Shown here piece by piece: positions 529 through 13,291 of a DNA stretch of 16,123 nucleotides. Each line of letters starts with the position of its first letter. The stretch's first letter is position 1. The notes under the pieces are model-generated. The model searched no databases and was not told the origin of the DNA. It saw nothing but the letters and a program-made list of their open reading frames with translations. A program made the translations under genes and the position numbers. This DNA comes from a virus (lineage: Duplodnaviria; Heunggongvirae; Uroviricota; Caudoviricetes). The stretch lies in IMG/VR virus record IMGVR_UViG_2558860288_000003, positions 1 through 16,123 of that record, one strand, 5' to 3'.

Positions 529-1866
529 ATGTTCAACTACCAGCGCCACTGGTGGGAAGCCGGAAAAACCAACCGCATCCGCAACCTGCTGAAGTCACGC
601 CAGATCGGCGCGACCTTCTATTTTGCCCGTGAAGCCCTGATTGACGCTCTGCTTACCGGACGTAACCAGATTTTTCTTTCCGCCAGCAAGGCACAGGCCC
701 ACGTCTTCAAACAGTACATCATCGACTTTGCCAAAGAAGTGGAGGTGGAGCTGAAAGGCGATCCGATGGTGCTTCCCAACGGGGCCACACTGTATTTCCT
801 CGGCACCAATGCCCGCACGGCCCAGAGTTACCACGGCAACCTGTATCTGGATGAATATTTCTGGATACCGAAATTCCAGGAGCTGCGCAAAGTGGCTTCT
901 GGTATGGCTATTCACAAGAAATGGCGACAAACCTATTTTTCCACGCCATCCAGCCTGACACACAGTGCTTATCCGTTCTGGTCCGGTGCACTGTTCAACC
1001 GTGGGCGCAACAAAGCCGATAAGGTGGACATCGACCTGTCCCACAGCAATCTGGCCCCCGGCCTGCTGTGCGCAGACGGGCAATACCGCCAGATAGTCAC
1101 CGTGGAAGATGCGGTGCGCGGCGGCTGCAACCTGTTCGACCTTGACCAGTTGCGCATGGAGTACAGCCCGGACGAATACCAGAACCTGCTGATGTGCGAG
1201 TTTGTGGACGATCTCGCGTCCGTGTTTCCGCTCAGCGAGCTGCAGGCGTGCATGGTGGACAGTTGGGAAGTCTGGACCGACTTTCATGCTCTGGCCCTGC
1301 GCCCGTTTGGCTGGCGCGAAGTGTGGATCGGTTATGACCCGGCAAAAGGTACGCAGAACGGCGACAGTGCCGGATGCGTGGTGGTGGCACCGCCAGCCGT
1401 GCCAGGCGGTAAGTTCCGCATTCTTGAGCGTCACCAGTGGCGCGGGATGGACTTCCGCGCCCAGGCTGACGCCATCAAAAAACTGACCGAACAGTACAAC
1501 GTGACATACATCGGCATCGACTCAACTGGCGTCGGCCACGGGGTTTACGAGAACGTGAAAGCATTCTTTCCTGCCGTCCGGGAGTTTGTCTACAACCCCA
1601 ACGTTAAAAACGCCCTGGTACTCAAGGCCTACGACATTATCAGCCACCGCCGTCTGGAGTTTGACGCCGGACACACCGACATAGCGCAGTCATTCATGGC
1701 AATCCGTCGCGCCACCACCGCCAGTGGCAACCGCCCGACCTATGAAGCCAGCCGCAGCGAAGAAGCCAGCCACGCCGATCTGGCCTGGGCAACGATGCAC
1801 GCACTGTTTAACGAACCGCTGCAGGGCGAATCCGCCAATACCAGCAATATTGTGGAGATTTTTTGA
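529..1866 (+). CDS. Terminase large (ATPase) subunit, P2 gpP family; apparently N-terminally truncated
   Basis: The 445-aa ORF contains WWEAGKTNRIRNLLKSRQIGATFYFAREA and an acidic-residue-rich nuclease-like C-terminal half typical of P2-type large terminases. The frame stays open upstream to a TGA at 367-369 with protein-like sequence (LNPNVANRNKGPRRQPEKNVFTDEQIEKLEEIFHSS) but no start codon. The stop TGA overlaps the portal ATG. Confidence 0.8.
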   Translation: MFNYQRHWWEAGKTNRIRNLLKSRQIGATFYFAREALIDALLTGRNQIFLSASKAQAHVFKQYIIDFAKEVEVELKGDPMVLPNGATLYFLGTNARTAQSYHGNLYLDEYFWIPKFQELRKVASGMAIHKKWRQTYFSTPSSLTHSAYPFWSGALFNRGRNKADKVDIDLSHSNLAPGLLCADGQYRQIVTVEDAVRGGCNLFDLDQLRMEYSPDEYQNLLMCEFVDDLASVFPLSELQACMVDSWEVWTDFHALALRPFGWREVWIGYDPAKGTQNGDSAGCVVVAPPAVPGGKFRILERHQWRGMDFRAQADAIKKLTEQYNVTYIGIDSTGVGHGVYENVKAFFPAVREFVYNPNVKNALVLKAYDIISHRRLEFDAGHTDIAQSFMAIRRATTASGNRPTYEASRSEEASHADLAWATMHALFNEPLQGESANTSNIVEIF

Positions 1867-2894
1867 TGGGAAAGAGTAAGAAGAACCGCGCTGCGGCGAC
1901 GAAACAGATCCAGCTTAAAAGTCAAACTACAGCCGAAGCATTCAGCTTCGGCGATCCCGTTCCTGTTCTGGACCGCCGTGAACTGCTGGACTATGTGGAA
2001 TGCGTACAGATGGATCGCTGGTATGAGCCGCCTGTGAGTTTCGACGGACTGGCGCGAACCTTCCGCGCCGCCGTGCATCACAGTTCACCAATTGCGGTGA
2101 AATGCAATATTCTGACCAGTACCTACATCCCTCACCCGCTGCTCAGCCAGCAGGCTTTTTCACGTTTTGTGCAGGACTATCTGGTATTTGGTAACGCCTA
2201 TCTGGAGAAACGCACGAACCGGTTCGGTGAAATTATCGCTCTTGAGCCTGCCCTGGCAAAATATACCCGACGCGGGTTAGACCTGGATACCTACTGGTTT
2301 GTGCAATACGGTATGACCACGCAACCGTATCAGTTCACGAAAGGCAGCATTTTTCATCTGATGGAACCAGATATCAACCAGGAGATCTACGGCCTGCCCG
2401 GTTATCTTTCTGCCATTCCGTCAGCCCTGCTCAACGAGTCCGCCACGCTGTTCCGCCGTAAGTATTACATCAACGGCAGCCATGCAGGCTTCATCATGTA
2501 CATGACCGACGCCGCGCAGAACCAGGAAGATGTAAACAATCTCCGTAACGCGATGAAAAGCGCCAAAGGTCCAGGCAACTTCCGCAACCTGTTTATGTAC
2601 TCGCCTAACGGCAAAAAAGACGGGCTTCAGATTATTCCTCTGTCAGAAGTCGCGGCAAAGGATGAATTTTTGAATATCAAGAACGTGAGCCGGGATGACA
2701 TGATGGCAGCACACCGAGTGCCGCCGCAAATGATGGGGATAATGCCGAATAATGTTGGGGGATTTGGGGATGTGGAGAAGGCTAGTAAGGTTTTTATGCG
2801 TAATGAATTGATACCGCTACAAAACAGAATAGAAGAACTCAATAAATGGCTCAAAGATGACATAATAAAATTCATGCCATACAGTTTCATATAA
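1866..2894 (+). CDS. Portal protein, P2 gpQ family
   Basis: The ORF is about 342 aa from the ATG at 1866 (the ORF track began at an in-frame TTG at 1863). Size and position immediately downstream of the terminase ATPase gene match the P2 P-Q operon, with a TGATG overlap and GGAG upstream. Confidence 0.8.
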   Translation: MGKSKKNRAAATKQIQLKSQTTAEAFSFGDPVPVLDRRELLDYVECVQMDRWYEPPVSFDGLARTFRAAVHHSSPIAVKCNILTSTYIPHPLLSQQAFSRFVQDYLVFGNAYLEKRTNRFGEIIALEPALAKYTRRGLDLDTYWFVQYGMTTQPYQFTKGSIFHLMEPDINQEIYGLPGYLSAIPSALLNESATLFRRKYYINGSHAGFIMYMTDAAQNQEDVNNLRNAMKSAKGPGNFRNLFMYSPNGKKDGLQIIPLSEVAAKDEFLNIKNVSRDDMMAAHRVPPQMMGIMPNNVGGFGDVEKASKVFMRNELIPLQNRIEELNKWLKDDIIKFMPYSFI

Positions 2895-2925: not shown

Positions 2926-4131
2926 TTAAGATTTATGGCTAAAGAGTATACCTGTAACAGAACGTTGATAGGCATCAAGCTTCTCTTGCCTCTGCTTAAA
3001 TTTAGATTTGATATCACTAATACTCGGAATACCTATTACTCCAAGGCCTGCACTTAACGCCGTTAAAGTAGTATTGCCAGTCAGCGCTCCAGCAATTGCT
3101 ATAGCACCATTTGCGATACATGGTAGGACATCTAGTCCGTAAATTCTCAATTTCTCTTTTTGGGCTTTTGCAAGAATCCTTTGATGTTCAATAAAAGCCC
3201 GGTCTACATTATCAATTACTTTTTGCGTTGTCCTCGAAAAGCTCTCTGCCGAAGAATTGATTAAAGAGTCAACACCATTTGATAAGATGGATCTTACATC
3301 CTCCATCAATTTGTTACGTCTCAACTCAATTATTTTATTGACCGGTACATTTCCTAACCATGAAAAACCATCTTGCATACCAGCAGATAACGCATGAACC
3401 ATATGCAAATTTTTTAGTTCAATATCATTGACATCAAAATTAAGAGATTCGTACTCAATAAGCCAAGTATAATAGAGCCAAGATGTGTCTGCATTTATAT
3501 ATGGAGTACTACCAAGTTCTTGTGCATTACATTTTGCTGAATAGGCTTGCGGCATTCTTCCAATGCAGGAAAGGAAAACCTCCATTCCAGCATGATCACC
3601 AACAAGATTACGTGATATTCTTTTTTTATCAGATAGTAGTTTTTCTAATTGAGTTTTTGGATTTAGCCCCCATGCTGTATCAAAAATAAGTCTATCTGCT
3701 CTCTTAATATTTTTAAGAACAGCATCAATATCATTCATCGAATAACTAAAATCTCGAAATTCATCGTAGCTTTCGAACCGTCGATCATAGAGATATTGCG
3801 CATGAGTCAGAGCATAAGGCTCACAAAAACTCATCAAATTTTTTTTGCTCTCAGTTTCAAAATCTCTTCTATCCGGCAAAATTAATACTATTGCTGGCTC
3901 TATATCTTCAAGCGCTACTTCTTTATATGTCATACATGTTAGGACATGCTTCAGAAGTATCCTTGTAAACTCAGCCTTATCTGACTTTTCATAGAGACGA
4001 CCGACTCTTAATATAGGACATGGAAGTGAAATAGTATCAACATACAACCCTGCAATAGAGACAGCATTCTCATCAAATGCAGGAAATAAGTCACCAGAAA
4101 AATTAGCTTTAAACTGAGAACCATCCTGCAA
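2926..4131 (-). CDS. Uncharacterised protein, C-terminal ORF of split gene X (candidate defence / abortive-infection effector)
   Basis: The 401-codon ORF in the track starts at a TTG. The same frame stays open and protein-like for 40 more codons upstream, to a stop at 4252-4254 (SIKFFSQQEEYVKQIEDIFPELYNQVIEFWQVTSDIGVIH), with no ATG. The C-terminal region has a hydrophobic Gly/Ala-rich stretch (LPCIANGAIAIAGALTGNTTLTALSAGLGVIGIPSI). The gene is strongly AT-rich by eye. Confidence 0.6.
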   Translation of the reverse strand: MQDGSQFKANFSGDLFPAFDENAVSIAGLYVDTISLPCPILRVGRLYEKSDKAEFTRILLKHVLTCMTYKEVALEDIEPAIVLILPDRRDFETESKKNLMSFCEPYALTHAQYLYDRRFESYDEFRDFSYSMNDIDAVLKNIKRADRLIFDTAWGLNPKTQLEKLLSDKKRISRNLVGDHAGMEVFLSCIGRMPQAYSAKCNAQELGSTPYINADTSWLYYTWLIEYESLNFDVNDIELKNLHMVHALSAGMQDGFSWLGNVPVNKIIELRRNKLMEDVRSILSNGVDSLINSSAESFSRTTQKVIDNVDRAFIEHQRILAKAQKEKLRIYGLDVLPCIANGAIAIAGALTGNTTLTALSAGLGVIGIPSISDIKSKFKQRQEKLDAYQRSVTGILFSHKS

Positions 4132-4205: not shown

Positions 4206-4598
4206 CTATTTGCTTAACATATTCTTCTTGTTGAGAAAAAAACTTGATGCTTTATGTGGCGTTGCATTAGTTTTTTTCATCAGATAAAACAACTCGCCAA
4301 AATTACTAAAAAGAATATTAAAGTAAGAACTTTGCAAGTCCTGAATAGAGTATTTGTTTTTTATATCTTCTCTTTCTAAAAAGTGATTAACCGCTGCTCC
4401 CATAGCCCTTATTCTGCCATCAACAGTAGAAGGGTCAACTTTACCATCCTGTCGCAGCCTTATTCTTTTAAAACTTTCAATAAAACCTTCTACAAGATGA
4501 TGAGCTATTTTTAGTTTTCCCGCTTCCAGTTGTTGCTTAATGAGAAAAACACGCTCAGTTAAATCATCTACATATTCCTCATCTTGATATTTTTCCAT
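4206..4598 (-). CDS. Uncharacterised protein, N-terminal ORF of split gene X
   Basis: ATG at 4598 with a GGAG 5 nt upstream (ttaatGGAGcgtttATG). The 130-codon ORF ends shortly after a T7 homopolymer (plus-strand A7 at 4236-4242). One extra T would fuse it in frame to ORF 2926..4131. Confidence 0.55.
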   Translation of the reverse strand: MEKYQDEEYVDDLTERVFLIKQQLEAGKLKIAHHLVEGFIESFKRIRLRQDGKVDPSTVDGRIRAMGAAVNHFLEREDIKNKYSIQDLQSSYFNILFSNFGELFYLMKKTNATPHKASSFFLNKKNMLSK

Positions 4599-4706
4599 AA
4601 ACGCTCCATTAAAATATTTAATAATGCATATAAGAATAGTTAATAATATTTACAGTAACTATATCACATTAGATCCAGATTGTTACACTGTTGCGCGCGC
4701 TCGTAT
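4599..4706 (-). promoter_or_regulatory. AT-rich upstream region of gene X (putative promoter)
   Basis: About 100 bp of very AT-rich non-coding sequence immediately upstream of the gene X start, with several TATA-like hexamers. No -35/-10 pair could be assigned with confidence. Confidence 0.3.
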
Positions 4707-4718
4707 CCCCGCCACGCC
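4707..4718 (-). other. cos-like motif: GGCGTGGCGGGG on the minus strand, matching the first 12 nt of the 186 cohesive end as remembered
   Basis: The plus strand reads CCCCGCCACGCC. The remembered 19-nt cohesive ends are GGCGTGGCGGGGAAAGCAT (186) and GGCGAGGCGGGGAAAGCAC (P2). Here the first 12 nt match 186 exactly and 3 of the remaining 7 also match (about 15/19). Orientation and position (between the A/tum side and Q) fit a cos site. Confidence 0.4.
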
Positions 4719-4767
4719 TGCTCGCTTTGTGTAGTGGTTTTCATGCAGGTGCATGACATAAGCAAAA

Positions 4768-4787
4768 GCCCGCCAGAACTGGCGGGC
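4768..4787 (-). terminator. Hairpin GCCCGCC-AGAACT-GGCGGGC followed on the minus strand by TTTTGCTT
   Basis: Perfect 7-9 bp GC-rich inverted repeat. On the minus strand a T-run follows it, so it is a possible second terminator or structured element in the cos-proximal non-coding region. Confidence 0.35.
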
Positions 4788-5003
4788 CTGCATCAAAACG
4801 ATCCTCAAACGATCATGCGTTCTCATGCAGCATAGTCATGCACGGATGAGAGAAATGAATGCGCGTATCCAAATGCCCGTTTGAAAAACGCAGATGAACT
4901 AAAAAAGCTTAAGGTCTACTATGAGCGAGAAACGGACATTTAATTTTCGAGTAGTGGAAATCGAAGCCAGTACCTGCCGGAGCCATAGTATCGAAACCAC
5001 GAA

Positions 5004-5031
5004 CAATAAAAAGCCTGGAAATATCCAGGCT
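5004..5031 (-). terminator. Intrinsic terminator downstream of the qor-like gene
   Basis: Stem GCCTGGA / TCCAGGC (7-8 bp) with a 4-nt loop. On the minus strand it is followed by TTTTTATTG, and it lies about 37 nt past the qor stop. Confidence 0.55.
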
Positions 5032-5066
5032 GCGCAAGACTCATTTATAGAATGCTGCGGTAAGGA

Positions 5067-6059
5067 TTACTCAACGGTCACAACTATTTTGCCGACCTGT
5101 CCATTGGACTCCATATAGCGCTGGGCGTCTGCAATCTCTTCGAACGGGAACGTCTTATCGATGACCGGCTTCAGTTTGCCGACTCGCAAGCCTTCTGTGA
5201 TAAAGGATTTTGCGCGCGCCATTTTTTCAGAGTCCGTCGTGATTTCAAACAGCTCATATCCACGCAGGGTGAGATGCTTACCGAGAATATCAAATACAGG
5301 CACAAGCATGTCACGGCTATCGAGCGCGCCGTACTGGAAAAACATACCCTGTGGTGCCATCACCTGCGTCAGTTTTGCCACGTCCGGCCCACCGACGGGA
5401 TCAAAAACAATATGGGCACCTGCGCCATCTGTTGCACGACTGATTTCAGCAACCATATCCTGCTCCGCAGTAGCAATGACGGCGGCTGCGCCAGCTTTAA
5501 GGAGCATTTCGCTTTTTTCAGAGGTCCGTGTGAGTGCAATTGGGTTTGCACCCAGCATGTTAGCAATCTGTATGGCAGCCAGACCCACGCTGCTTGATGC
5601 TGCGCGGATCACGACATTCTGACCAGCCTGAAGGTTGCCATACTCAACCAGCGCACCATAAGCGGTGACATACATCATCCAGCTTGCGGCGGCTTCCTCG
5701 AATGAAAGGTTTTCAGGATGCTTTACGACAGCATGAACCGGTGCGTTGACCACTTCACCATACATGCCGTATTCATTAAACATAAATGAAGGGATCACGC
5801 TTACCCGATCTCCAGTGGTAAACTCATCTACATTCTCACCTACTGCCTGTACAACGCCGGCCGCTTCATAACCAAGACGTGCCGGAAATTCCGGCTCAAT
5901 AACATATTGGCCGTTGCGGTACATGATTTCTGCACGGTTGATACCTATCGCATGTACGCGGATCTGCACTTCACCCGCTGTCGGTGCAGGCACCTGCACA
6001 TCAACAACTTCCAGCACTTCCGGGCCACCGGTGCGGTTAAAGGTAATAACTTTAGACAT
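5067..6059 (-). CDS. NAD(P)H:quinone oxidoreductase-like enzyme (medium-chain dehydrogenase/reductase superfamily)
   Basis: The translation MSKVITFNRTGGPEVLEVVDVQVPAPTAGEVQIRVHAIGINRAEI... has the typical quinone-oxidoreductase N-terminus and a Rossmann-type glycine-rich segment (VVIRAASSSVGLAAIQIA). ATG at 6059 with a GAGAG SD; the track start at 6065 is a TTG. Confidence 0.85.
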   Translation of the reverse strand: MSKVITFNRTGGPEVLEVVDVQVPAPTAGEVQIRVHAIGINRAEIMYRNGQYVIEPEFPARLGYEAAGVVQAVGENVDEFTTGDRVSVIPSFMFNEYGMYGEVVNAPVHAVVKHPENLSFEEAAASWMMYVTAYGALVEYGNLQAGQNVVIRAASSSVGLAAIQIANMLGANPIALTRTSEKSEMLLKAGAAAVIATAEQDMVAEISRATDGAGAHIVFDPVGGPDVAKLTQVMAPQGMFFQYGALDSRDMLVPVFDILGKHLTLRGYELFEITTDSEKMARAKSFITEGLRVGKLKPVIDKTFPFEEIADAQRYMESNGQVGKIVVTVE

Positions 6060-6208
6060 ATTCAACTCTCTTCAGTTAAAGGCACACCTTCAGAATAATG
6101 CCGAAGGGATGCCCGAATCATTTGTGAACAATCTACGTTGTTACGAACACACCAGAAATAGCTGAGAGGGAACTTCAGTATTAATTATCCATTAACAATC
6201 CGCCTGCT

Positions 6209-7099
6209 TCAGCGGATCTGCGTGGCCAGAATATCACTGAACCAGTCGATAAAGACGCGCACTTTTGGAGAAAGGTAGCGCCTGTCGGGATACATCACTG
6301 ACACGGGCTTTGACACCGATGGGTATTGCGGCAGAATCTCTTCAAGAGCGCCGGAAGCAATATGGGGAGCAACGGCATCATAGGTAGCCTGGATAATGCC
6401 CAGACCAGCCAGAGCACAAGAAAGCAGAATATCGGAATTATCAACCAGCAGGCTGCCCGCAGGACGTAGCGAAACAATGCTCCCGTCTTCGATAAACTTC
6501 CATTCCATGACGTCACGACTGTGGTCGCTAAAAAAGTTAATTGCCCGATGTTTATCCAGATCCGCAAGTGTTTCTGGCCGCTCATGCTGCTGCAGGTAAG
6601 ACGGGGCTGCACAGGTAACCATCCGGATGTCACCAAGACGTCTGGATATAAAACTAGAATCTTGAAGCGCCCCCAGGCGGACAAGGCAATCTACGCCTTC
6701 CGTAATCAAATCAGTTTTTTTATCGGAAGAAACCAGCACAACTTCAATACCTGGATACAGTGCCTGAAAATGCCTGAGATTAGGGATCAATATGGAATGC
6801 GCCAGCGCCAGGGGCACATCAAGTCTCAGGCGTCCTCGCGGTGGAAGTGTCGGTGAAAAACTGGCCATCATGTCATTAACTTCGGCCAGAACATGCCTAG
6901 CATGATGATAGAACTCATCCCCTTCAGCAGTAACGCTCAGCTTTCGGGTTGTGCGATAAATGAGTTTTACACCCAGATCATGCTCTATCTGCTGTATCGC
7001 TTTGCTCACAGTGGGGCGATGAATCTGAAGTACATCAGCAGCTTTCGTGAAGCTACCCTGCTCAACAACCTGTATGAAAATATTTAGGTATTCAATCAT
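6209..7099 (-). CDS. LysR-family transcriptional regulator
   Basis: From the ATG at 7099 the protein starts MIEYLNIFIQVVEQGSFTKAADVLQIHRPTVSKAIQQIEHDLGVKLIYRTTR..., the canonical LysR-family N-terminal helix-turn-helix. The rest has a substrate-binding-domain-like size of about 296 aa. Confidence 0.85.
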   Translation of the reverse strand: MIEYLNIFIQVVEQGSFTKAADVLQIHRPTVSKAIQQIEHDLGVKLIYRTTRKLSVTAEGDEFYHHARHVLAEVNDMMASFSPTLPPRGRLRLDVPLALAHSILIPNLRHFQALYPGIEVVLVSSDKKTDLITEGVDCLVRLGALQDSSFISRRLGDIRMVTCAAPSYLQQHERPETLADLDKHRAINFFSDHSRDVMEWKFIEDGSIVSLRPAGSLLVDNSDILLSCALAGLGIIQATYDAVAPHIASGALEEILPQYPSVSKPVSVMYPDRRYLSPKVRVFIDWFSDILATQIR

Positions 7100-7333
7100 G
7101 TTGGCATGCACGTGCTCACCTGTTTTGTAGGCTGTTCAAAACCGACATTGTAAAGTAAACCATCCCAACGACATTATTTCTTTTCGTTCAGATAAGGGCT
7201 TTCTGACTGTCACAATGTCCACTTCTGGCACAAAGCGGACGACCATTTTCAAATGGCCGTCGCATCTAACACCTCGTTTCACTCATTGTTCAACCTTACC
7301 CCCATCAGAAGGAATTCTTTCGGGGGCAACGTT

Positions 7334-7922: not shown

Positions 7923-10316
7923 TCAGTAATACTGCCGCCACTTGTCATCCTCACGCAGCCGCCCGTTCTGGTAAAAGATGCGCAGCCCTCCCCCTGACGG
8001 AAGGCTGCCGCCGCGTAAAAGTAAATTCACTTCATACTCACTGCCATCGAACCCTCTGGACCGCAACTCATACTCCAGCTGCAGGCGCTGCTGCTCAGAA
8101 ATATTCTGCTTGTATGCCTTTTTCCGTTTCGGTTTTACCAGCCTGAGCCGGGCAACCAGCTCCCGCCGTTCCTTTTTGCCCATGCCGTGCAGATAGTCCT
8201 GCAGCGCCTTTTCATCCATGGACGTGATACCCGTTACTTCCCCCCCTGTTTGGTTCAAATTTTCAACAGGGGGACAGTTATTGCCACGAGTCCAAGGGGC
8301 GCAAGCGCCCTGGTCGGCTGCCGCCTCCTGAACGTCAACGGCCTTACGAACCATTTTCCACTTCACGGCATGAGTGCAGATCTTGCCCTCTGCAATAGGT
8401 GACCAGATGCCATAAATACGAATGCCGTGATCGCCATAGGCGGTCGGCTCTTCGTTGATTTCATAAGCAGTTCTGATGAGGTGATATTTGCGGGGAACCA
8501 GTACGCCACCCTGCTTCATGATGTAGGTGGCAAAACAACCAGCATCAGCAGCAGCCAGAATGGCATCAAGGCGCGGGTTATCCAGTACCGGCGCACCTGC
8601 TTTTTTGTCCCCCTGTTGCCTTGCCGCCTGACCAGCCAGCAATCGCAGTTCACGGTAAGCCTGACGCCCCGGAATGCCAAAGAAGCGGAATTGCTGAACA
8701 CGATGCAGAGACGCCCAGGCATTAACGTATTCAGCATTATCACGCAGGGATTTCCCCGTTTCCTTGCTGATCTCGCCAGCCAGACCACGCCCGTCAATGT
8801 TCTTACTGATGTATTTCACGATGTAGCTAGTCGGCGTTCCTTTGCGCGGGTTTATCAGCTCAGACTTAAAGCGTGGCCCCGTGTTATTACCCAGCTCCTC
8901 GCGGTCTTCACGGATAGCAAACTTACGCAACAATGCAGTAATGGCGCGGCGGTCTTTTTTGCGCATGAAACACAACAGGTGCCAGTGAACTGTGCCGTCA
9001 TGATGCGGCTCAGCCACCCGCACGCCATACCAGCGCAACCCGGCTTTGTGCATCGCCTTACGAAATGCAGCAAACATGCCGACCAGATAATCACTGCTTT
9101 GTCTTACCGTCGCATTTGTCCAGGTCGGGTTGGGCCTGCCGTTATTTAGCGTGGAATGGAAACGTGACGGACAGGTGATGGTGTAGAAAACGGCGCAGTC
9201 ACCGCGCATTTCCGCGATAAGCTCCAGACCTTTAACACAGGCCATCATCTCATTGCGGCGATGCGCAGGGTTGCTGCTGCTGGCGTTTACCACATCCTCC
9301 ATGTCCAGCGTGTCGCCGTCTTCGTTCACCAGTTCATGAGAACGGAAAAACTCCAGCGACTTACGGCGCTGCTCACGTTTATGCATCACGGCTTCATAGC
9401 TGACATAGGGAGATGCTTTTTTGCTGACCAGGCAAACAGCACGCAACTGCTCTTCCCGCCATTCGCAACGCATCTTCCATAATTTCCGGTACCACCAATC
9501 GGCGCACAACATACGCGCCAGCGAACCCGGAATGAGTTCATAGGGCACGGGTTTACGGCGGTTTCTTTTCCGGCGGAGTTGCTCAAACGCAGGCGGTATG
9601 ACATCCAGTCGCAGGGTTTCTGCTGCCACCTTTTCCCATGTCTTGCGGATTTCTTCTGGCTTAACATCATCGGTGGCGTACAAATCACCACAAGCGGCAT
9701 CAAGACACATACTCATATGCGCAGCGACAAGAGTAGACAGGCGTTTCACCTGATCCTGACTCATTTCAGGCAAGATCAGCAGGCCGTCCAGCCCTTCATG
9801 GCTTGCCATAAAGCGAAAAGAAGTGGATAGCTGACTGTCGCGTACATGCTCCAGTCGTTCCAGACATGGCTTAATCGTCTCACGCAAATAGCGGGAATAA
9901 GCCTTTGGCCTGCCCAGGCTGCTGAAGTATTCAATACGTTGCATCAGCGGCTTGCTGATATGGGAAGGCTGGGCGTTAACGTCCGCCAGTATGACCATGT
10001 CCGGATTAAAACGCTGCTGCTCATGCGCCAGCTTTGCCCGGCTAATAAGCTTATCCTGCTCCATTTCGCGCTGGACAGGATCACGGGATTCATTAAAGAA
10101 ATAACGCTCCCAGACCTGATCACTCAGTGCCTCGCGGCGCAGTTGTTCCTGCTCGTTATCGGCAGCGTACAGAGTGATCAGGTTTGAAAGCGCAGAAACC
10201 GGCGCAACTTCCGCCGGGTCCAGATAAGGGTTAATAGCCTTTTTCGGGCTGTTCCATGAGAATGCTGCGGCGGCCTCGTTAAAGCCGCTGCAGTTGTTCA
10301 TATCAGCATGGCTCAT
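7923..10316 (-). CDS. Replication initiation protein, P2 gpA family (rolling-circle HUH endonuclease)
   Basis: The 797-aa protein contains a His-hydrophobic-His motif ([11 protein letters not shown]) and sits at the P2 gene A position downstream of the early genes. Its start overlaps the dam stop (ATGA). Confidence 0.85.
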
Positions 10317-11170
10317 GCACGCACTCCGTACACGGCAGAACTATCCACGCCACGCGAAGAATCAAATCCCACCCAGCAGCGTGCCCCAGAAACAGCGATG
10401 ATTTCTGTTGCAGATTTACTCTCACCAGCTGCTACGCCGATGCTGCGTTTTGCCTTGATGTAGTGGTGAGTAAAATTGCGATACAGCGAACGGATCAGGG
10501 ATGTGTCACTGTTAGAAACAATGACCGGATGTCCTTCTGATGACCGATGTTCAAGAACGGATGCCAGGTGATACTGGTCATCTTCAGTGAAACCATCAGT
10601 GTGATAGCCGGAAAACGTACCGTCATACGGCGGATCGCAATACACCACATCCCCCGCCTTCAACATCGCCAGCGTTTCATCAAAGCTGGCGCAGATAAAC
10701 GTTGCTCGCTGGGCCTTTTCTGCAAATGCGCGAATTTCTTTTTCAGGGAAATACGGATTTTTATAATTACCGTAGGGAATGTTGAAATGCCCGCTCTTGT
10801 TATAGCTACATAAACCACGGTAACCGTGACGATTGAGATACAGGAAATATACCGCTTTCATGAAATCAGTAATTTCAGTTGAGTAATTAAACTCCTGCCT
10901 TATGTTGTAATAAGCCACCTCCCTGTTTGCGATCTCAAATAAAACTCTGGCGCGAGATATAAACGATTCACAATCAGCAGCAACCTTTTTATAGAGGTTG
11001 ATTAAATCAGGATTAATATCCGCAACAAGATAGCTGGGGTAATCCGTCTCCATCATCACAGCACAGGAACCCGCGAAAGGTTCAACCAGTCGCGGGCCAG
11101 CAGGAAGATGTTTTTTCAGTTCGGACATAATGGTAGTTTTATTACCCGCCCATTTCAGGATGGTGCTCAT
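10313..11170 (-). CDS. DNA adenine methyltransferase (Dam-like, GATC-type N6-adenine MTase)
   Basis: From the ATG at 11170 the protein starts [62 protein letters not shown]... and contains a DPPY catalytic motif ([12 protein letters not shown]). SD AGGAGG; the track start at 11242 lies inside the upstream gene. Confidence 0.85.
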
Positions 11171-11469
11171 ACAGCACCTCCTGCAATAACATATCCTAAA
11201 GCTTCTAATGGGGTTAATGGGCGAATTGATAGCATCACCCATTGTTCTGAAACTGCCATGACGTCATTAACCGGAAGCACATGAGAGATAACAGCGGCCC
11301 ATTCCCTACCCGTAAATACGCCATGCTTCCATTCGCAAAGAGAAAGAACATCACCAACTTTATAGCCACGATCGTCTTTACGAAGTTCAGCCGTCTTTTG
11401 ACCTGCAACCACAGCGTTGAAATACTTAGGTGCAATTTTTAATTGATGGATACGCACTGCCCTTGTCAT
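11167..11469 (-). CDS. Small early protein, ASCH / DUF3850-like
   Basis: From the ATG at 11469 the 100-aa protein starts [41 protein letters not shown].... SD GGAGG. It has ATGA overlaps with both neighbours. Confidence 0.55.
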
Positions 11470-11693
11470 ACAGCACCTCCGTTGTAATGTTTGCCTTTCA
11501 GCTCTACGATTTCCTGGCAGGTAATGCAAAGCTGCACTCCCGGAATGGCGCGGCGTCGTGCTGGCGGAATTGGCGCTTCACATTCAATACAAAGCACGCG
11601 AGACACGCCCGGTGTTTTGGCACGGGCAGCACGAATATGGCGCTGGCGTTCTTCTTCAACGCGCTGCTGTACGAGATCCATTGCATCAGCCAT
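11466..11693 (-). CDS. TraR/DksA-family C4 zinc-finger protein
   Basis: The 75-aa protein has a Cys-x2-Cys ... Cys-x2-Cys arrangement (CIECEAPIP...LCITCQ), typical of the small TraR-like zinc-finger proteins in P2-family early operons. Confidence 0.7.
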
Positions 11694-11926
11694 TAGTGGA
11701 TCTCCTGCGCTTCGTTCTGGATTGCTTCAGCAGTTACACGCAGCAGTTCTGCCGCTTCGACGTGGTTTAGCTGGCGGGATGTGATATGACACGCCAGGCT
11801 ATCAAGGCGAGCTGCCATTGCTTCAGCCCTTGCCCGGCGTTCTTCCAGACGAGCCTCTGTCAGTAAAATATTAAGCCCTGCGTCATCCGGTCCGGTTTTA
11901 GTCGAGAGGGTTTCAATATTACGCAT
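11693..11926 (-). CDS. Hypothetical early protein (small, helical)
   Basis: ATG at 11926 with SD AGGAGA. The 77-aa product is rich in Ala/Arg/Glu. Its stop overlaps the next start (TAATG). Confidence 0.45.
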   Translation of the reverse strand: MRNIETLSTKTGPDDAGLNILLTEARLEERRARAEAMAARLDSLACHITSRQLNHVEAAELLRVTAEAIQNEAQEIH

Positions 11927-11993
11927 AATCAATTCTCCTGAATTTAGATAAAGGGATGCCCGGCGGGTTTACGCCATTAATTTCATTAGTTGG

Positions 11994-12335
11994 TTAATTC
12001 GGCATGGTTAGCCGTCTGGGAAATAAGCTCACCACTGCACGAAAATGATTCATTGCTTTAATCAACTCCCGCTTTTCGTCAGTGGTCAGCTCATTAATGC
12101 TGATGCTATGACGTTCAGCTGGAATTTTTGCCATAAAGAATATGGCAGCCAGTGCCCGTTTATTTTGTTCGCTATTAATATCGCGTGGATCACGCATATC
12201 TTTAATAAACCGCTCAAGCTCTGACTCAATATTCAGACCAAAAACTTTCGCCCTTAACTCCGCAATGTGATTAAGTCCATTCAGGCGTTGACCGGGGCTT
12301 AATGGAACAGTCGCCGCAGCGCCTTCAATAGCCAT
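11994..12335 (-). CDS. Hypothetical early protein (at the 186 dhr position)
   Basis: ATG at 12335 with SD GGGGGA. The 113-aa ORF overlaps the upstream fil-like ORF by 37 nt in another frame. Confidence 0.45.
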   Translation of the reverse strand: MAIEGAAATVPLSPGQRLNGLNHIAELRAKVFGLNIESELERFIKDMRDPRDINSEQNKRALAAIFFMAKIPAERHSISINELTTDEKRELIKAMNHFRAVVSLFPRRLTMPN

Positions 12336-12499
12336 TTGTTCCCCCGTTTTTTCGTAGATAGTTCTGCCAGCAATTCATCTTGTGAACGGCACGGATGCCA
12401 GCGTTTACCATCCTCACCCATGATCCAGCCGTGACCGTAGTGCATTGCCGGGCTTTGTTTAACCAGCAGCGATGCAAATGATGGTTCTTTCGTAAGCAT
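12299..12499 (-). CDS. Small early protein, possibly Fil-like
   Basis: ATG at 12499 with SD GAGGTG; the 66-aa product is MLTKEPSFASLLVKQSPAMHYGHGWIMGEDGKRWHPCRSQDELLAELSTKKRGNK.... The position immediately after cII matches fil in 186. The family assignment is from memory only. Confidence 0.4.
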   Translation of the reverse strand: MLTKEPSFASLLVKQSPAMHYGHGWIMGEDGKRWHPCRSQDELLAELSTKKRGNKWLLKALRRLFH

Positions 12500-12506
12500 A
12501 AGCACC

Positions 12507-13016
12507 TCACAGCAAACCGAATGAAGCACCAAGGCCAGTCATGGTATCAACTGCACTCGCCATCGCCGGGTTAGCCTGTAAACGGGCCTGCAATGAAACA
12601 GCAGCCAGCGCCATCAGTCGTGTTACAGAGTTAATGCTGCTGATAGCATCACGACGACCTGCACTGGTTTTTACATTGCCAGATACCGCACCTGCAGCAA
12701 CACGCCCGATCTCTGCGGTTGCACTCATGACGTAATGCGGCAGTTTCTCTTTTGCTACCTCATTAATCGGTACACATGGCAGGCAGTGAATCTGTGCCAG
12801 AAAACCATCTATCAGCGTTGAATCTTCAGTCAGATCGGTAAGCAGCCAGATTTCTGGCGCATTGAGCTGATGCGGTTGATCTGGGTTGAGTTTGTTTCGC
12901 AGAGTCTGGACATTCATTCCTGCACGTTCTGCCAGCTTCGCCATATTGTGACGAAGTGCAAAAGCTCTACAGGCTTCATCAAAATGCGGGTGTTTGGAAA
13001 TCTTATAATCAAACAT
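12507..13016 (-). CDS. cII: CII-like lysogeny establishment regulator (186 CII family)
   Basis: The 169-aa protein MFDYKISKHPHFDEACRAFALRHNMAKLAERAGMNVQTLRNKLNPDQPHQLNAPEIWLLTDLTEDSTLIDGFLAQIHCLPCVPINE... has the same length and the same start as 186 CII as remembered. SD AAGGGGG. Confidence 0.8.
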   Translation of the reverse strand: MFDYKISKHPHFDEACRAFALRHNMAKLAERAGMNVQTLRNKLNPDQPHQLNAPEIWLLTDLTEDSTLIDGFLAQIHCLPCVPINEVAKEKLPHYVMSATAEIGRVAAGAVSGNVKTSAGRRDAISSINSVTRLMALAAVSLQARLQANPAMASAVDTMTGLGASFGLL

Positions 13017-13048
13017 GCTACCCCCTTAGAAAGTTCTCATAATTGAAC

Positions 13049-13291
13049 TTACTTACCAACAATGACGCGGAAGTTGGAATGACCGAGGGATTCACGGACC
13101 TGATCGGTTTTGTACATTAAATAACGCAGGCTTACGCGGCCTTTGTTTTTTTCTTTCTTGACCATGTATTTAGCAAGCTGACCATGGTGAATTTTTTGAT
13201 ACACGGAGCCGCGGGAGATACCTTCCCATTCCGCGAACTCTGCAGGCGTAGCCATCTCTTTTGGTACACGAATTGAAATATCAGTACTCAT
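13049..13291 (-). CDS. Apl/Cox-like excisionase-repressor, first gene of the lytic operon
   Basis: 80-aa basic protein, divergent from cI and immediately upstream of cII. It has a helix-turn-helix-like segment (ATPAEFAEWEGISRGSVYQKIHHGQL). Confidence 0.6.
   Translation of the reverse strand: MSTDISIRVPKEMATPAEFAEWEGISRGSVYQKIHHGQLAKYMVKKEKNKGRVSLRYLMYKTDQVRESLGHSNFRVIVGK

Follow-up and report, generated by a model that had tools for sequence, protein, structure and literature searches.

A perfect 15-bp repeat at two consecutive gene junctions bounds an optional DUF3850 gene in the early operon of a P2-like prophage

The 16,123-nucleotide stretch analyzed here in full (hereafter, the window; IMG/VR virus record IMGVR_UViG_2558860288_000003) contains the early operon of a P2-like (Peduoviridae) prophage of the Felsduovirus/RE2010-like type. 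On the minus strand of this operon, the 15-mer GGAGGTGCTGTATGA is present at both ends of a small gene that encodes a DUF3850/ASCH-like protein, first at the junction with the upstream gene for a TraR/DksA-type zinc-finger protein (ZnF; junction copy J1) and again at the junction with the downstream methyltransferase gene dam (J2). The repeat bounds a precise, gene-sized presence/absence polymorphism among close relatives of the prophage. By its layout, the 15-mer appears to be a translational-coupling junction, and the two states of the locus most likely originated by exchange between the junction copies.

Presence and absence of the DUF3850 gene

A 1,701-bp query across the region was compared with 5,426 complete Escherichia coli genomes and with phage records, and matched 1,243 of the genomes and 56 of the phage records. 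Nearly all matching relatives align in two pieces that span 1,402 bp, that is, 299 bp less than the query. In Salmonella phage RE2010 (L001) and E. coli ES1 (L003), where the flanks of the indel are 96-98% identical to the window, the alignment reads ...CATTACAAC-GGAGGTGCTGTATGA-GCACCATCC..., with a single 15-mer where the zinc-finger gene adjoins dam directly; two further E. coli prophages in the alignment share with the window the 284-bp body of the DUF3850 gene and a second 15-mer. The 299 bp are absent from most relatives, for example from the phages RE2010 and Fels-2, and from about 94% of the corresponding E. coli prophages. A near-identical DUF3850 gene (at least 95% identity) was found in 76 E. 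coli genomes, compared with the 1,243 that carry the region, always at this one locus and once per genome. The close relatives without the segment keep exactly one copy of the repeat and no other scar.

The IMG/VR database was scanned with the exact 15-mer, and the following counts rest on the matches listed, which comprise at least 120 loci. Among these, at least 80 15-mers are located at ZnF-to-dam junctions, 17 at ZnF-to-DUF3850 and 17 at DUF3850-to-dam junctions, the latter two kinds always paired and 299 bp apart; 5 are ZnF-to-exonuclease junctions and about 20 are unrelated singletons. One record with a different spacing (L051, IMGVR_UViG_643348545_000015) has 15-mers at 10503-10517 and 11579-11593, 1,076 bp apart rather than 299. 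Its DUF3850 open reading frame (ORF) is cut after ...EWKHG and is followed by GGTAATGCTGCCAACTTACTGATTTAGTGTATGAT, which we take to be an end of IS1; since 299 + 777 = 1,076, the spacing fits IS1 plus a 9-bp duplication.

A second precise indel of the same architecture is found in a sister lineage that has diverged by about 20%. E. coli L3_E36 (L008) and Yersinia phage MLG42 (L005), which belong to this lineage, retain the order ZnF-DUF3850-dam, with the junctions GGAGGTGCAGTATGA and GGGGGAGCTATATGA that produce the tails GGAV* and GGAI*, respectively. Compared with L008, the loci L178 and L326 contain 763 bp more, encoding an exonuclease (exo) and a 61-aa protein (g61), and thus possess the full array ZnF-exo-g61-DUF3850-dam. 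This indel is bounded by GGAGGTGC[A/T]GTATGA and GGCGGTGCGGTATGA, the first and third junctions of the array, and leaves one intact junction; its left flank is 95-98% identical between L008 and L178/L326. Thus, two independent indels, of 299 bp and 763 bp, are precise and repeat-bounded. The initial annotation, made from the window alone, had suggested for the repeat either a coupling cassette that was duplicated or a stretch of short homology serving modular gene exchange, and had pointed to the gene boundaries of P2/186-like relatives as the place to look. These boundaries indeed coincide with the 15-mer, the DUF3850-less relatives being exactly 299 bp shorter with one copy kept, and both indels support the proposal.

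A direct repeat that flanks an insertion, with a single copy at the empty site, is also what a transposon-like or homing cassette would produce, the 15-mer being its target-site duplication or recombination site. We regard this as extremely improbable: terminal inverted repeats were not found at 11182/11465, and the sole ORF of the 299-bp segment encodes the 100-aa DUF3850/ASCH protein, with no transposase, recombinase or nuclease, so the cassette does not appear to be a transposon or a homing element. Furthermore, the E. coli copies do not occur outside their single locus, and 15 bp exceeds the usual target-site duplications, which are shorter. The identification of the cassette as a moron was also tried and rejected, because no sigma-70-like promoter or terminator of its own was found on the minus strand beside it, the counts of such signals being at chance level.

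The repeat and the adjacent genes in the window

The features of the locus, as derived from the ORF map, pattern searches, Pfam matches, alignment and RNA folding, are as follows.

11466..11480, minus strand: junction copy J1; final four codons of the zinc-finger gene plus its stop (G-G-A-V-TGA), Shine-Dalgarno sequence (SD) GGAGGTG, and ATG of DUF3850 overlapping the stop
11167..11181, minus strand: J2, a second junction copy with the same sequence as J1; final four codons of DUF3850 plus its stop, SD, and ATG of dam
11182..11465, minus strand: unique 284 bp of the cassette, which form the body of the DUF3850/ASCH-like gene; one 15-mer added to them gives the 299 bp absent from most relatives
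11466..11693, minus strand: TraR/DksA-type C4 zinc-finger gene, homologue of P2 orf82, 75 aa, ending NGGAV* (Pfam zf-dskA_traR, 3.7e-11)
11167..11469, minus strand: DUF3850 (PF12961)/ASCH-like ORF, 100 aa, ending AGGAV*, the optional gene (Pfam DUF3850, 1.1e-23; weaker ASCH match, 2.2e-5)
10313..11170, minus strand: dam, D12-class N6-adenine methyltransferase, 285 aa, with its start codon inside J2 (Pfam MethyltransfD12, 3e-76)
11156..11183, minus strand: predicted hairpin over the dam translation-initiation region, with the 5' arm at 11173-11183 and the 3' arm at 11156-11167 (RNA folding)
10313..10327, minus strand: dam-to-gpA junction GGAGTGCGTGCATGA, with an ATGA overlap and an SD at the same distance as in the 15-mer
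7923-10316: P2 gpA-type replication endonuclease (ORF map and Pfam)

The pattern search of the window detected exactly two copies of GGAGGTGCTGTATGA, in direct orientation on the same strand, identical at 15 of 15 positions and 299 bp apart from start to start; a third copy was not found in the window even when 3 mismatches were allowed. This is the sole exact direct repeat of 15 nt or more within the window. Its degenerate form GGNGGNGCNNNATGA was found twice against 0.02 expected occurrences, and none of 200 shuffled sequences reached two. The similarity ends abruptly on both sides, with ACAAC before and CAAGG after J1 as opposed to TTGCA and GCACC at J2; the minus-strand contexts are ...AAACATTACAAC GGAGGTGCTGTATGA CAAGGGCAG... 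for J1 and ...GTTATTGCA GGAGGTGCTGTATGA GCACCATCC... for J2. All these features, namely the two perfect copies at consecutive minus-strand junctions, the immediately differing flanks, the GGAGG with the overlapping ATG and the GGAV ends of both upstream proteins, had been described in the initial annotation and were recovered here by pattern search and in the ORF map. Its gene identities (zinc finger, ASCH and dam) are backed by Pfam, with the ASCH gene now recognized as DUF3850. The nearest solved structure for the DUF3850 ORF is that of an ASCH-domain protein (3iuw, 7e-10).

The 15-mer as a translational junction

The 15-mer consists of GGAGGTG, a 4-nt spacer (6 nt counted from GGAGG) and ATGA, so that the SD is located inside the upstream ORF, and at both junctions the upstream UGA overlaps the downstream AUG (AUGA). 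GGAGGUG is the perfect complement of the 3' end of 16S rRNA. Judged by this layout, the 15-mer looks like a textbook coupling junction.

Beyond what the initial annotation described, J2 is also the 5' arm of a predicted hairpin with the first codons of dam: CAGGAGGUGCU (GUAUG) AGCACC-A-UCCUG, in which the 5' arm comprises the SD of J2, the 3' arm comprises dam codons 2-5, and the 5-nt loop contains the AUG together with the upstream UGA. In a 91-nt context, the window sequence folds at -32.2 kcal/mol with a z-score of -3.3; the corresponding z-scores are -2.3 for the empty form of RE2010, -3.8 for an exo-to-dam junction and -2.7 for a DUF3850-to-dam junction from another lineage. When 34 distinct dam junctions are compared, 81.8% of the alignment cells are paired, as against 34-49% when the 3' partners are slid, and one of the pairs occurs as GC (22), GU (8) and AU (3). 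Covariation is modest, with a score that was reached by 2 of 500 shuffles. To be set against these results, the hairpin is weak in the Elveevirus-like lineage (z -0.5) and is replaced by another fold in L241, and the structure that was tested derives from one of the aligned sequences. Altogether, the support for the hairpin is moderate. At J1, ahead of DUF3850, no significant local RNA structure was predicted (z +0.56). Given that the predicted hairpin buries the SD, most translation of dam is probably due to ribosomes that come from the upstream gene; in other words, the start region of dam is probably occluded and is opened by the ribosomes that finish the preceding gene, in a case of translational coupling.

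A further pairing is specific to the form that contains DUF3850: the perfect 8-nt inverted repeat CGCCCATT / AATGGGCG (11147-11154 with 11216-11223) joins the 3' part of DUF3850 to dam codons 7-9 and forms an outer stem around the dam start hairpin in the minimum-energy fold.

Other junctions and occupants of the slot

Junctions of the same type separate other genes in the slot between the zinc-finger gene and dam or gpA. In the full array of L178 and L326, the four consecutive junctions are GGAGGTGC[A/T]GTATGA, GGCGGTGCCGAATGA, GGCGGTGCGGTATGA and GGGGGAGCT[T/A]TATGA, so that four unrelated proteins (ZnF, exo, g61 and DUF3850) all end in GGA-x. A DnaQ/RNase_T-type exonuclease occupies the slot in SEN8, L100 and L220 and ends in GGTGGTGCTAAATGA (GGAK*) ahead of dam. 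Every other arrangement that we observed is a subset of genes cut at the junctions. These include:

ZnF-exo-dam
ZnF-dam
exo-DUF3850 (Quadragintavirus)
ZnF-exo-DUF5405-DUF3850-like-gpA (L039)
ZnF-exo-g134-DUF5405-C5 methylase-gpA (Citrobacter, L242)

In the last of these (L242, Citrobacter amalonaticus; minus strand, reverse-complement coordinates 1557-2363), the C5 cytosine methylase replaces dam, and in L330 (Dryocola sp. BD586) a 322-aa protein with a PAPS-reductase domain follows the zinc-finger gene (4616-5584). The slot seems to collect DNA-modification and nucleic-acid enzymes. The contig L326 (QAKE01000041.1, 7.4 kb) is labelled as a Bacillota metagenome-assembled genome, yet it carries the enterobacterial P2-like early operon ZnF-exo-g61-DUF3850-dam-gpA; most likely, the contig was misbinned in the public record.

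As a control, about 110 distinct 15-mers with an ATGA overlap were collected between same-strand ORFs of at least 60 codons in all fetched loci. All matches to GGNGGNGCNNNATGA among them fall in this slot, and the other ATGA overlaps of these phages differ from it. In relatives, the dam-to-gpA junction GAGGTGCGTGTATGA equals the 15-mer minus its first G and with a G added after GGTGC, which shifts the frame such that it encodes EVRV*. J1 and J2 are identical only in the lineage of the window; in the older lineages that contain DUF3850, the two junctions differ at four or more positions. Hybrid junctions were considered as crossover footprints and rejected: those left after the 763-bp indel and those in SEN8-type forms fit an exchange in the shared GTATGA and are indistinguishable from parental junctions. 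In a scan of genome contigs, the pattern for the end of the zinc-finger gene was too degenerate; of 120 matches, 11 proved genuine and about 110 noise.

Origin of the two states

The exchange between junction copies that we favor would work as follows. The 15-mer would be the standard translational-coupling junction for the variable part of the P2-like early operon, and exchange between two copies would add or remove a gene scarlessly, preserving the tail and stop of the upstream protein as well as the SD, the hairpin arm and the start of the next gene. Within this reading, loss appears somewhat more likely than gain: genes of an ancestral ZnF-exo-g61-DUF3850-dam array would have been removed by short-direct-repeat deletion (through slipped mispairing or recA-independent recombination), and ordinary homologous recombination in the flanks would subsequently have carried both alleles into various backbones. 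Perfect 15-bp repeats in direct orientation, spaced by 299 bp, are classic substrates of deletion without recA, and all shorter forms can be derived from the four-junction array by deletions between junctions. The identity between the window and four other lineages is 78-85% for ZnF, 76-80% for DUF3850 and 76-78% for dam; given that the three genes are similarly diverged, ZnF-DUF3850-dam appears to be an old, co-diverging arrangement, which favors loss in the empty forms.

Several observations weigh against this reconstruction. The similarity of the junctions is largely explained by function (SD complementarity, ATGA and the hairpin arm), and no more than about two substitutions separate the exact identity of this lineage from the junction found in L173, which belongs to another lineage (GGAGGAGCTATATGA), so that the copies may have become identical by convergence. 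The cassette is half as diverse as its flanks (nucleotide diversity, pi, of 0.015 as against 0.030 and 0.040), and identical copies of J1 and J2 are what an insertion with duplication of the junction would leave behind. For the forms with DUF3850, the nearest neighbor is also a form with DUF3850 in 33 of 36 cases. A haplotype of +-150 bp common to forms with and without the gene was not found; no deletion or insertion event in progress was seen in the population data; the tandem-duplication product with three junctions was not seen at any of the IMG/VR 15-mer loci; and mosaic joints other than the indel itself were not found at 15-mers. Given the lack of a shared haplotype, the clustering and the lack of a triple-junction product, the events would be rare and old, and the alleles may simply move by homologous recombination in the flanks. 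The association of the indel with flanking single-nucleotide polymorphisms reaches 0.64 within 200 bp and falls to about 0.1 further out. Altogether, the polymorphism looks old and seems to have arisen few times, with homologous recombination shuffling it since.

Two further lines of evidence were tried and discarded. The divergent flanks of four forms with DUF3850 (L129, L163, L161 and L083), considered as mosaic joints, turned out to be alignment shifts; true divergence sets in some 650-750 bp further downstream than J2, close to the dam 3' end. Empty forms seemed to be absent where J1 differs from J2 (0 of 14 IMG/VR loci with the CCACTATCC allele of dam are empty), and this test was withdrawn because loci without that dam allele could not match the search pattern. 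Fels-2, whose backbone is of the CCACTATCC type, is empty, but it has the junction and the dam 5' end of the window type. Separately, the segment of the window at about 10150-10350 (dam 3' end and dam-gpA junction) has a pi of 0.115, compared with 0.03-0.04 elsewhere among close relatives, and L129, L163 and L083 lose similarity at the 3' end of dam, a mosaic boundary that is unrelated to the 15-mer.

The functional constraints on the junction could be taken to be the entire explanation, namely that shared selection on the SD, the spacing and ATGA (and, at J2, on the hairpin) made the copies identical, while the polymorphism stems from an unrelated event and is kept up by homologous recombination in the flanks, without any recombination role for the 15-mer. 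In line with this possibility, GGAGGUG matches the 16S 3' end perfectly, SD strength accounts for positions 3 and 6 of the 15-mer, the remaining free positions would agree by chance about 1 time in 8 (an estimate from the variants), the dam-to-gpA junction is alike although it is read in another frame, and Fels-2 shows alleles moving by ordinary recombination. Coincidence or convergence nevertheless appears improbable, because the end-points of both indels match the repeat to the base, four unrelated consecutive genes end in the same junction type, the other ATGA junctions of these phages are not of this form, and the degenerate motif is expected at only 0.02 occurrences per window.

The alternative in the direction of change, a gain, is that an ancestral ZnF-junction-dam arrangement acquired DUF3850 at its junction, through recombination that was illegitimate or relied on microhomology (template switching). 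The junction would have become duplicated since the zinc-finger gene had to keep its tail and stop, and dam its SD, hairpin arm and start; the identical copies would then be the scar of the insertion. This would account for the equality of J1 and J2 in a single lineage, as opposed to the four or more differing positions in the older ones, for the low diversity of the cassette relative to its flanks and for the majority status of the empty form. Furthermore, the 15-mer is co-adapted to dam codons 2-5, which makes the zinc-finger tail look as if it had evolved next to dam. However, DUF3850 is as diverged from other lineages as its neighbors are, no closer donor was found (the next-best DUF3850 protein is 79-81% identical), and ZnF-DUF3850-dam is present in at least four diverged lineages, in addition to the longer full array. 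Accordingly, we regard a gain as an unlikely, although not negligible, origin of the polymorphism, and retain loss by deletion between the junction copies as the preferred direction.

Shared protein tails

Because the junction lies within the upstream coding sequence, the upstream gene must end in the codons that the junction encodes; unrelated proteins share GGA-x tails because the start region of the next gene dictates the last codons of the upstream one. Tails of this kind were observed in at least four unrelated gene families of the slot, a point that goes beyond the initial annotation. In L191, the same sequence is a non-coding ribosome-binding site (RBS), with a TAA stop 14 nt upstream, and in P2 the homology of the zinc-finger protein ends at ...KHY, followed by the tail RRTA*. 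A second house-style junction of Peduoviridae early operons is tATGGCCGTTAA, shared by the orf83-to-gene A junction of P2 (L344, 1387-1397) and the DUF3850-to-methylase junction of Quadragintavirus (L006 and L007, about 2298-2308); this 11-nt overlap specifies a YGR* tail on unrelated upstream proteins and a MAVK start on the downstream ones. The junction travels with the 5' end of dam, as can be seen in the mosaic of Fels-2 (L346, NC_010463; 964-1171), where the exact 15-mer and the first ~60 nt of dam are those of the RE2010/window allele and the zinc-finger gene resembles the E. coli L3_E36/MLG42 lineage.

The GGA-x terminus might instead be selected at the protein level, for instance as a degradation or interaction tag on early proteins, with the DNA identity as a by-product. 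Gly-Gly-Ala is indeed kept in ZnF, exo, g61 and DUF3850 despite synonymous variation (GGA/GGG/GGC/GGT, GGT/GGA and GCT/GCA/GCC). We consider this explanation very unlikely given that L191 carries the sequence as a non-coding RBS, that the dam-to-gpA junction bears it in another frame (EVRV*), that the zinc-finger tails vary (GGVV, KGVV and GSAL, with RRTA in P2), and that the DUF3850 tails are quite different where another junction type comes next.

Genomic context

Upstream of the zinc-finger gene, the operon comprises genes for DUF2732, DUF5347, Fil and CII and a cox/apl-like gene, with CI and the integrase gene divergent. The gene order CI, cox/apl-CII-Fil-DUF5347-DUF2732-ZnF(orf82)-...-gpA is that of P2-like phages, homologous to P2, Fels-2 and RE2010, and the region is most closely related to RE2010 and to comparable phages of Klebsiella and Escherichia. 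Between the portal gene (1863-2891, plus strand) and DinI/gpA, the window contains non-phage cargo (2929-7111, minus strand), which includes a zinc-type alcohol dehydrogenase (5070-6065) and a LysR regulator (6212-7111); no Pfam match was found for the cargo ORFs 2929-4131 (401 aa) and 4209-4598 (130 aa). Coverage of the window by any complete E. coli genome does not exceed 76%. The closest E. coli prophage for the early operon, that of E. coli 2824 (L209, NZ_CM128562.1; 5064-6932, 99.8% identity), is collinear with the window only from ~8250 to 13050 and is probably defective since IS26 interrupts its portal gene. The Rfam search of the whole window gave no matches at the gathering score.

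Comparison with known systems

The feature falls among short functional repeats at gene boundaries that are associated with gene-sized phage indels, and it resembles several known systems, each in part. Translational coupling through a stop/start overlap and occlusion of the RBS is known for trpE-trpD, atpH-atpA and the MS2 coat-replicase pair. Here too, there is an AUGA overlap, the SD is located in the upstream ORF, and at J2 it is predicted to be sequestered in a hairpin that the upstream ribosome would open; the difference, which is new, is that successive junctions share one coupling unit and that the boundaries of indels fall on it.

Deletions between short direct repeats in E. coli, by slipped mispairing and independently of recA, were reportedly described by Albertini et al. 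in 1982, Bi and Liu in 1994 and Lovett in 2004. The 15-bp perfect direct repeat with its 299-bp spacing, and a product that keeps one copy, conform to this geometry, which deletes at measurable rates; in the present case, however, only the natural end-products are seen, and the repeat is functional, so the product is neutral or viable rather than a loss of function. Linker sequences are said to have been put forward within the modular theory by Susskind and Botstein in 1978, and boundary sequences in lambdoid phages by Clark et al. in 2001. There as in the present case, conserved short boundary sequences are proposed as sites of exchange between unrelated modules; those of lambdoid phages are intergenic, whereas in the P2-like operon the RBS function explains the conservation and a recombination role is not required. 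Morons, reportedly introduced by Juhala et al. and Hendrix et al. in 2000, are likewise small accessory genes that some members of a group carry exactly between two conserved genes; morons bring a promoter and a terminator, whereas the DUF3850 cassette depends on operon transcription and on the coupling junction.

In the PeSL cassettes of T4-type phages, repeated units of an early promoter and a stem-loop terminator bound small non-essential genes and mediate insertion, deletion and replacement of the genes they bound (Arbiol et al., 2010, PMC2839356; Comeau et al., 2014, PMC4122927). The likeness lies in short repeated expression signals that border small genes in a variable region and in indel end-points between close relatives that fall in the repeats. 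However, PeSLs are transcriptional and located between genes, whereas the 15-mer is translational and located inside the upstream coding sequence, so that it dictates protein tails; furthermore, mini-circles have been demonstrated for PeSLs, whereas the 15-mer is described here from sequence end-products. With no promoter or terminator in the repeat, the resemblance is functional only, and the 15-mer does not belong to the PeSL type. An evolutionary unit that reaches from the 3' end of an ORF across the spacer into the 5' end of its neighbor has been proposed for bacteria (Tsuru and Kobayashi, 2008, PMC2568036). There, as here, the exchanged unit is the junction rather than the gene, the 15-mer and the first dam codons moving together in Fels-2; that case involves tandem bacterial paralogues with long homology, in contrast to unrelated genes and a 15-30 nt junction in the present one. 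In the literature on P2-like phages, no description of this junction or of the DUF3850 polymorphism was found.

Implications

The locus is a clean, tractable case with a neat explanation of the protein tails, although one that is unsurprising to specialists in phage genome evolution. For annotation, it implies that short C-terminal tails common to unrelated phage proteins can stem from the ribosome-binding region of the next gene, and for engineering, the junction could serve for the insertion of genes into P2-like early operons with the expression of dam and gpA undisturbed. It is also a natural test case for an old question, namely whether single small genes are exchanged through linker homology or by random illegitimate recombination followed by selection: it offers a duplicated 15-bp signal, hundreds of relatives with and without the gene, a second indel of the same kind and a four-junction array, and it is small enough for direct experiments, in which one junction can be recoded synonymously (for example, J1 as GGTGGCGCAGTTTGA).

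More tentatively, one standard translational connector, an extended SD with AUGA that is co-adapted to the next start, may be present at every boundary of the variable early-gene array, and recombination between copies of this connector may be the actual mechanism by which early genes such as those for the exonuclease, g61, DUF3850 and DUF5405 are plugged in and out scarlessly, the common GGA-x tail being a by-product. If true, this would be the translational counterpart of PeSL and a concrete case of the linker sequences of the modular theory.

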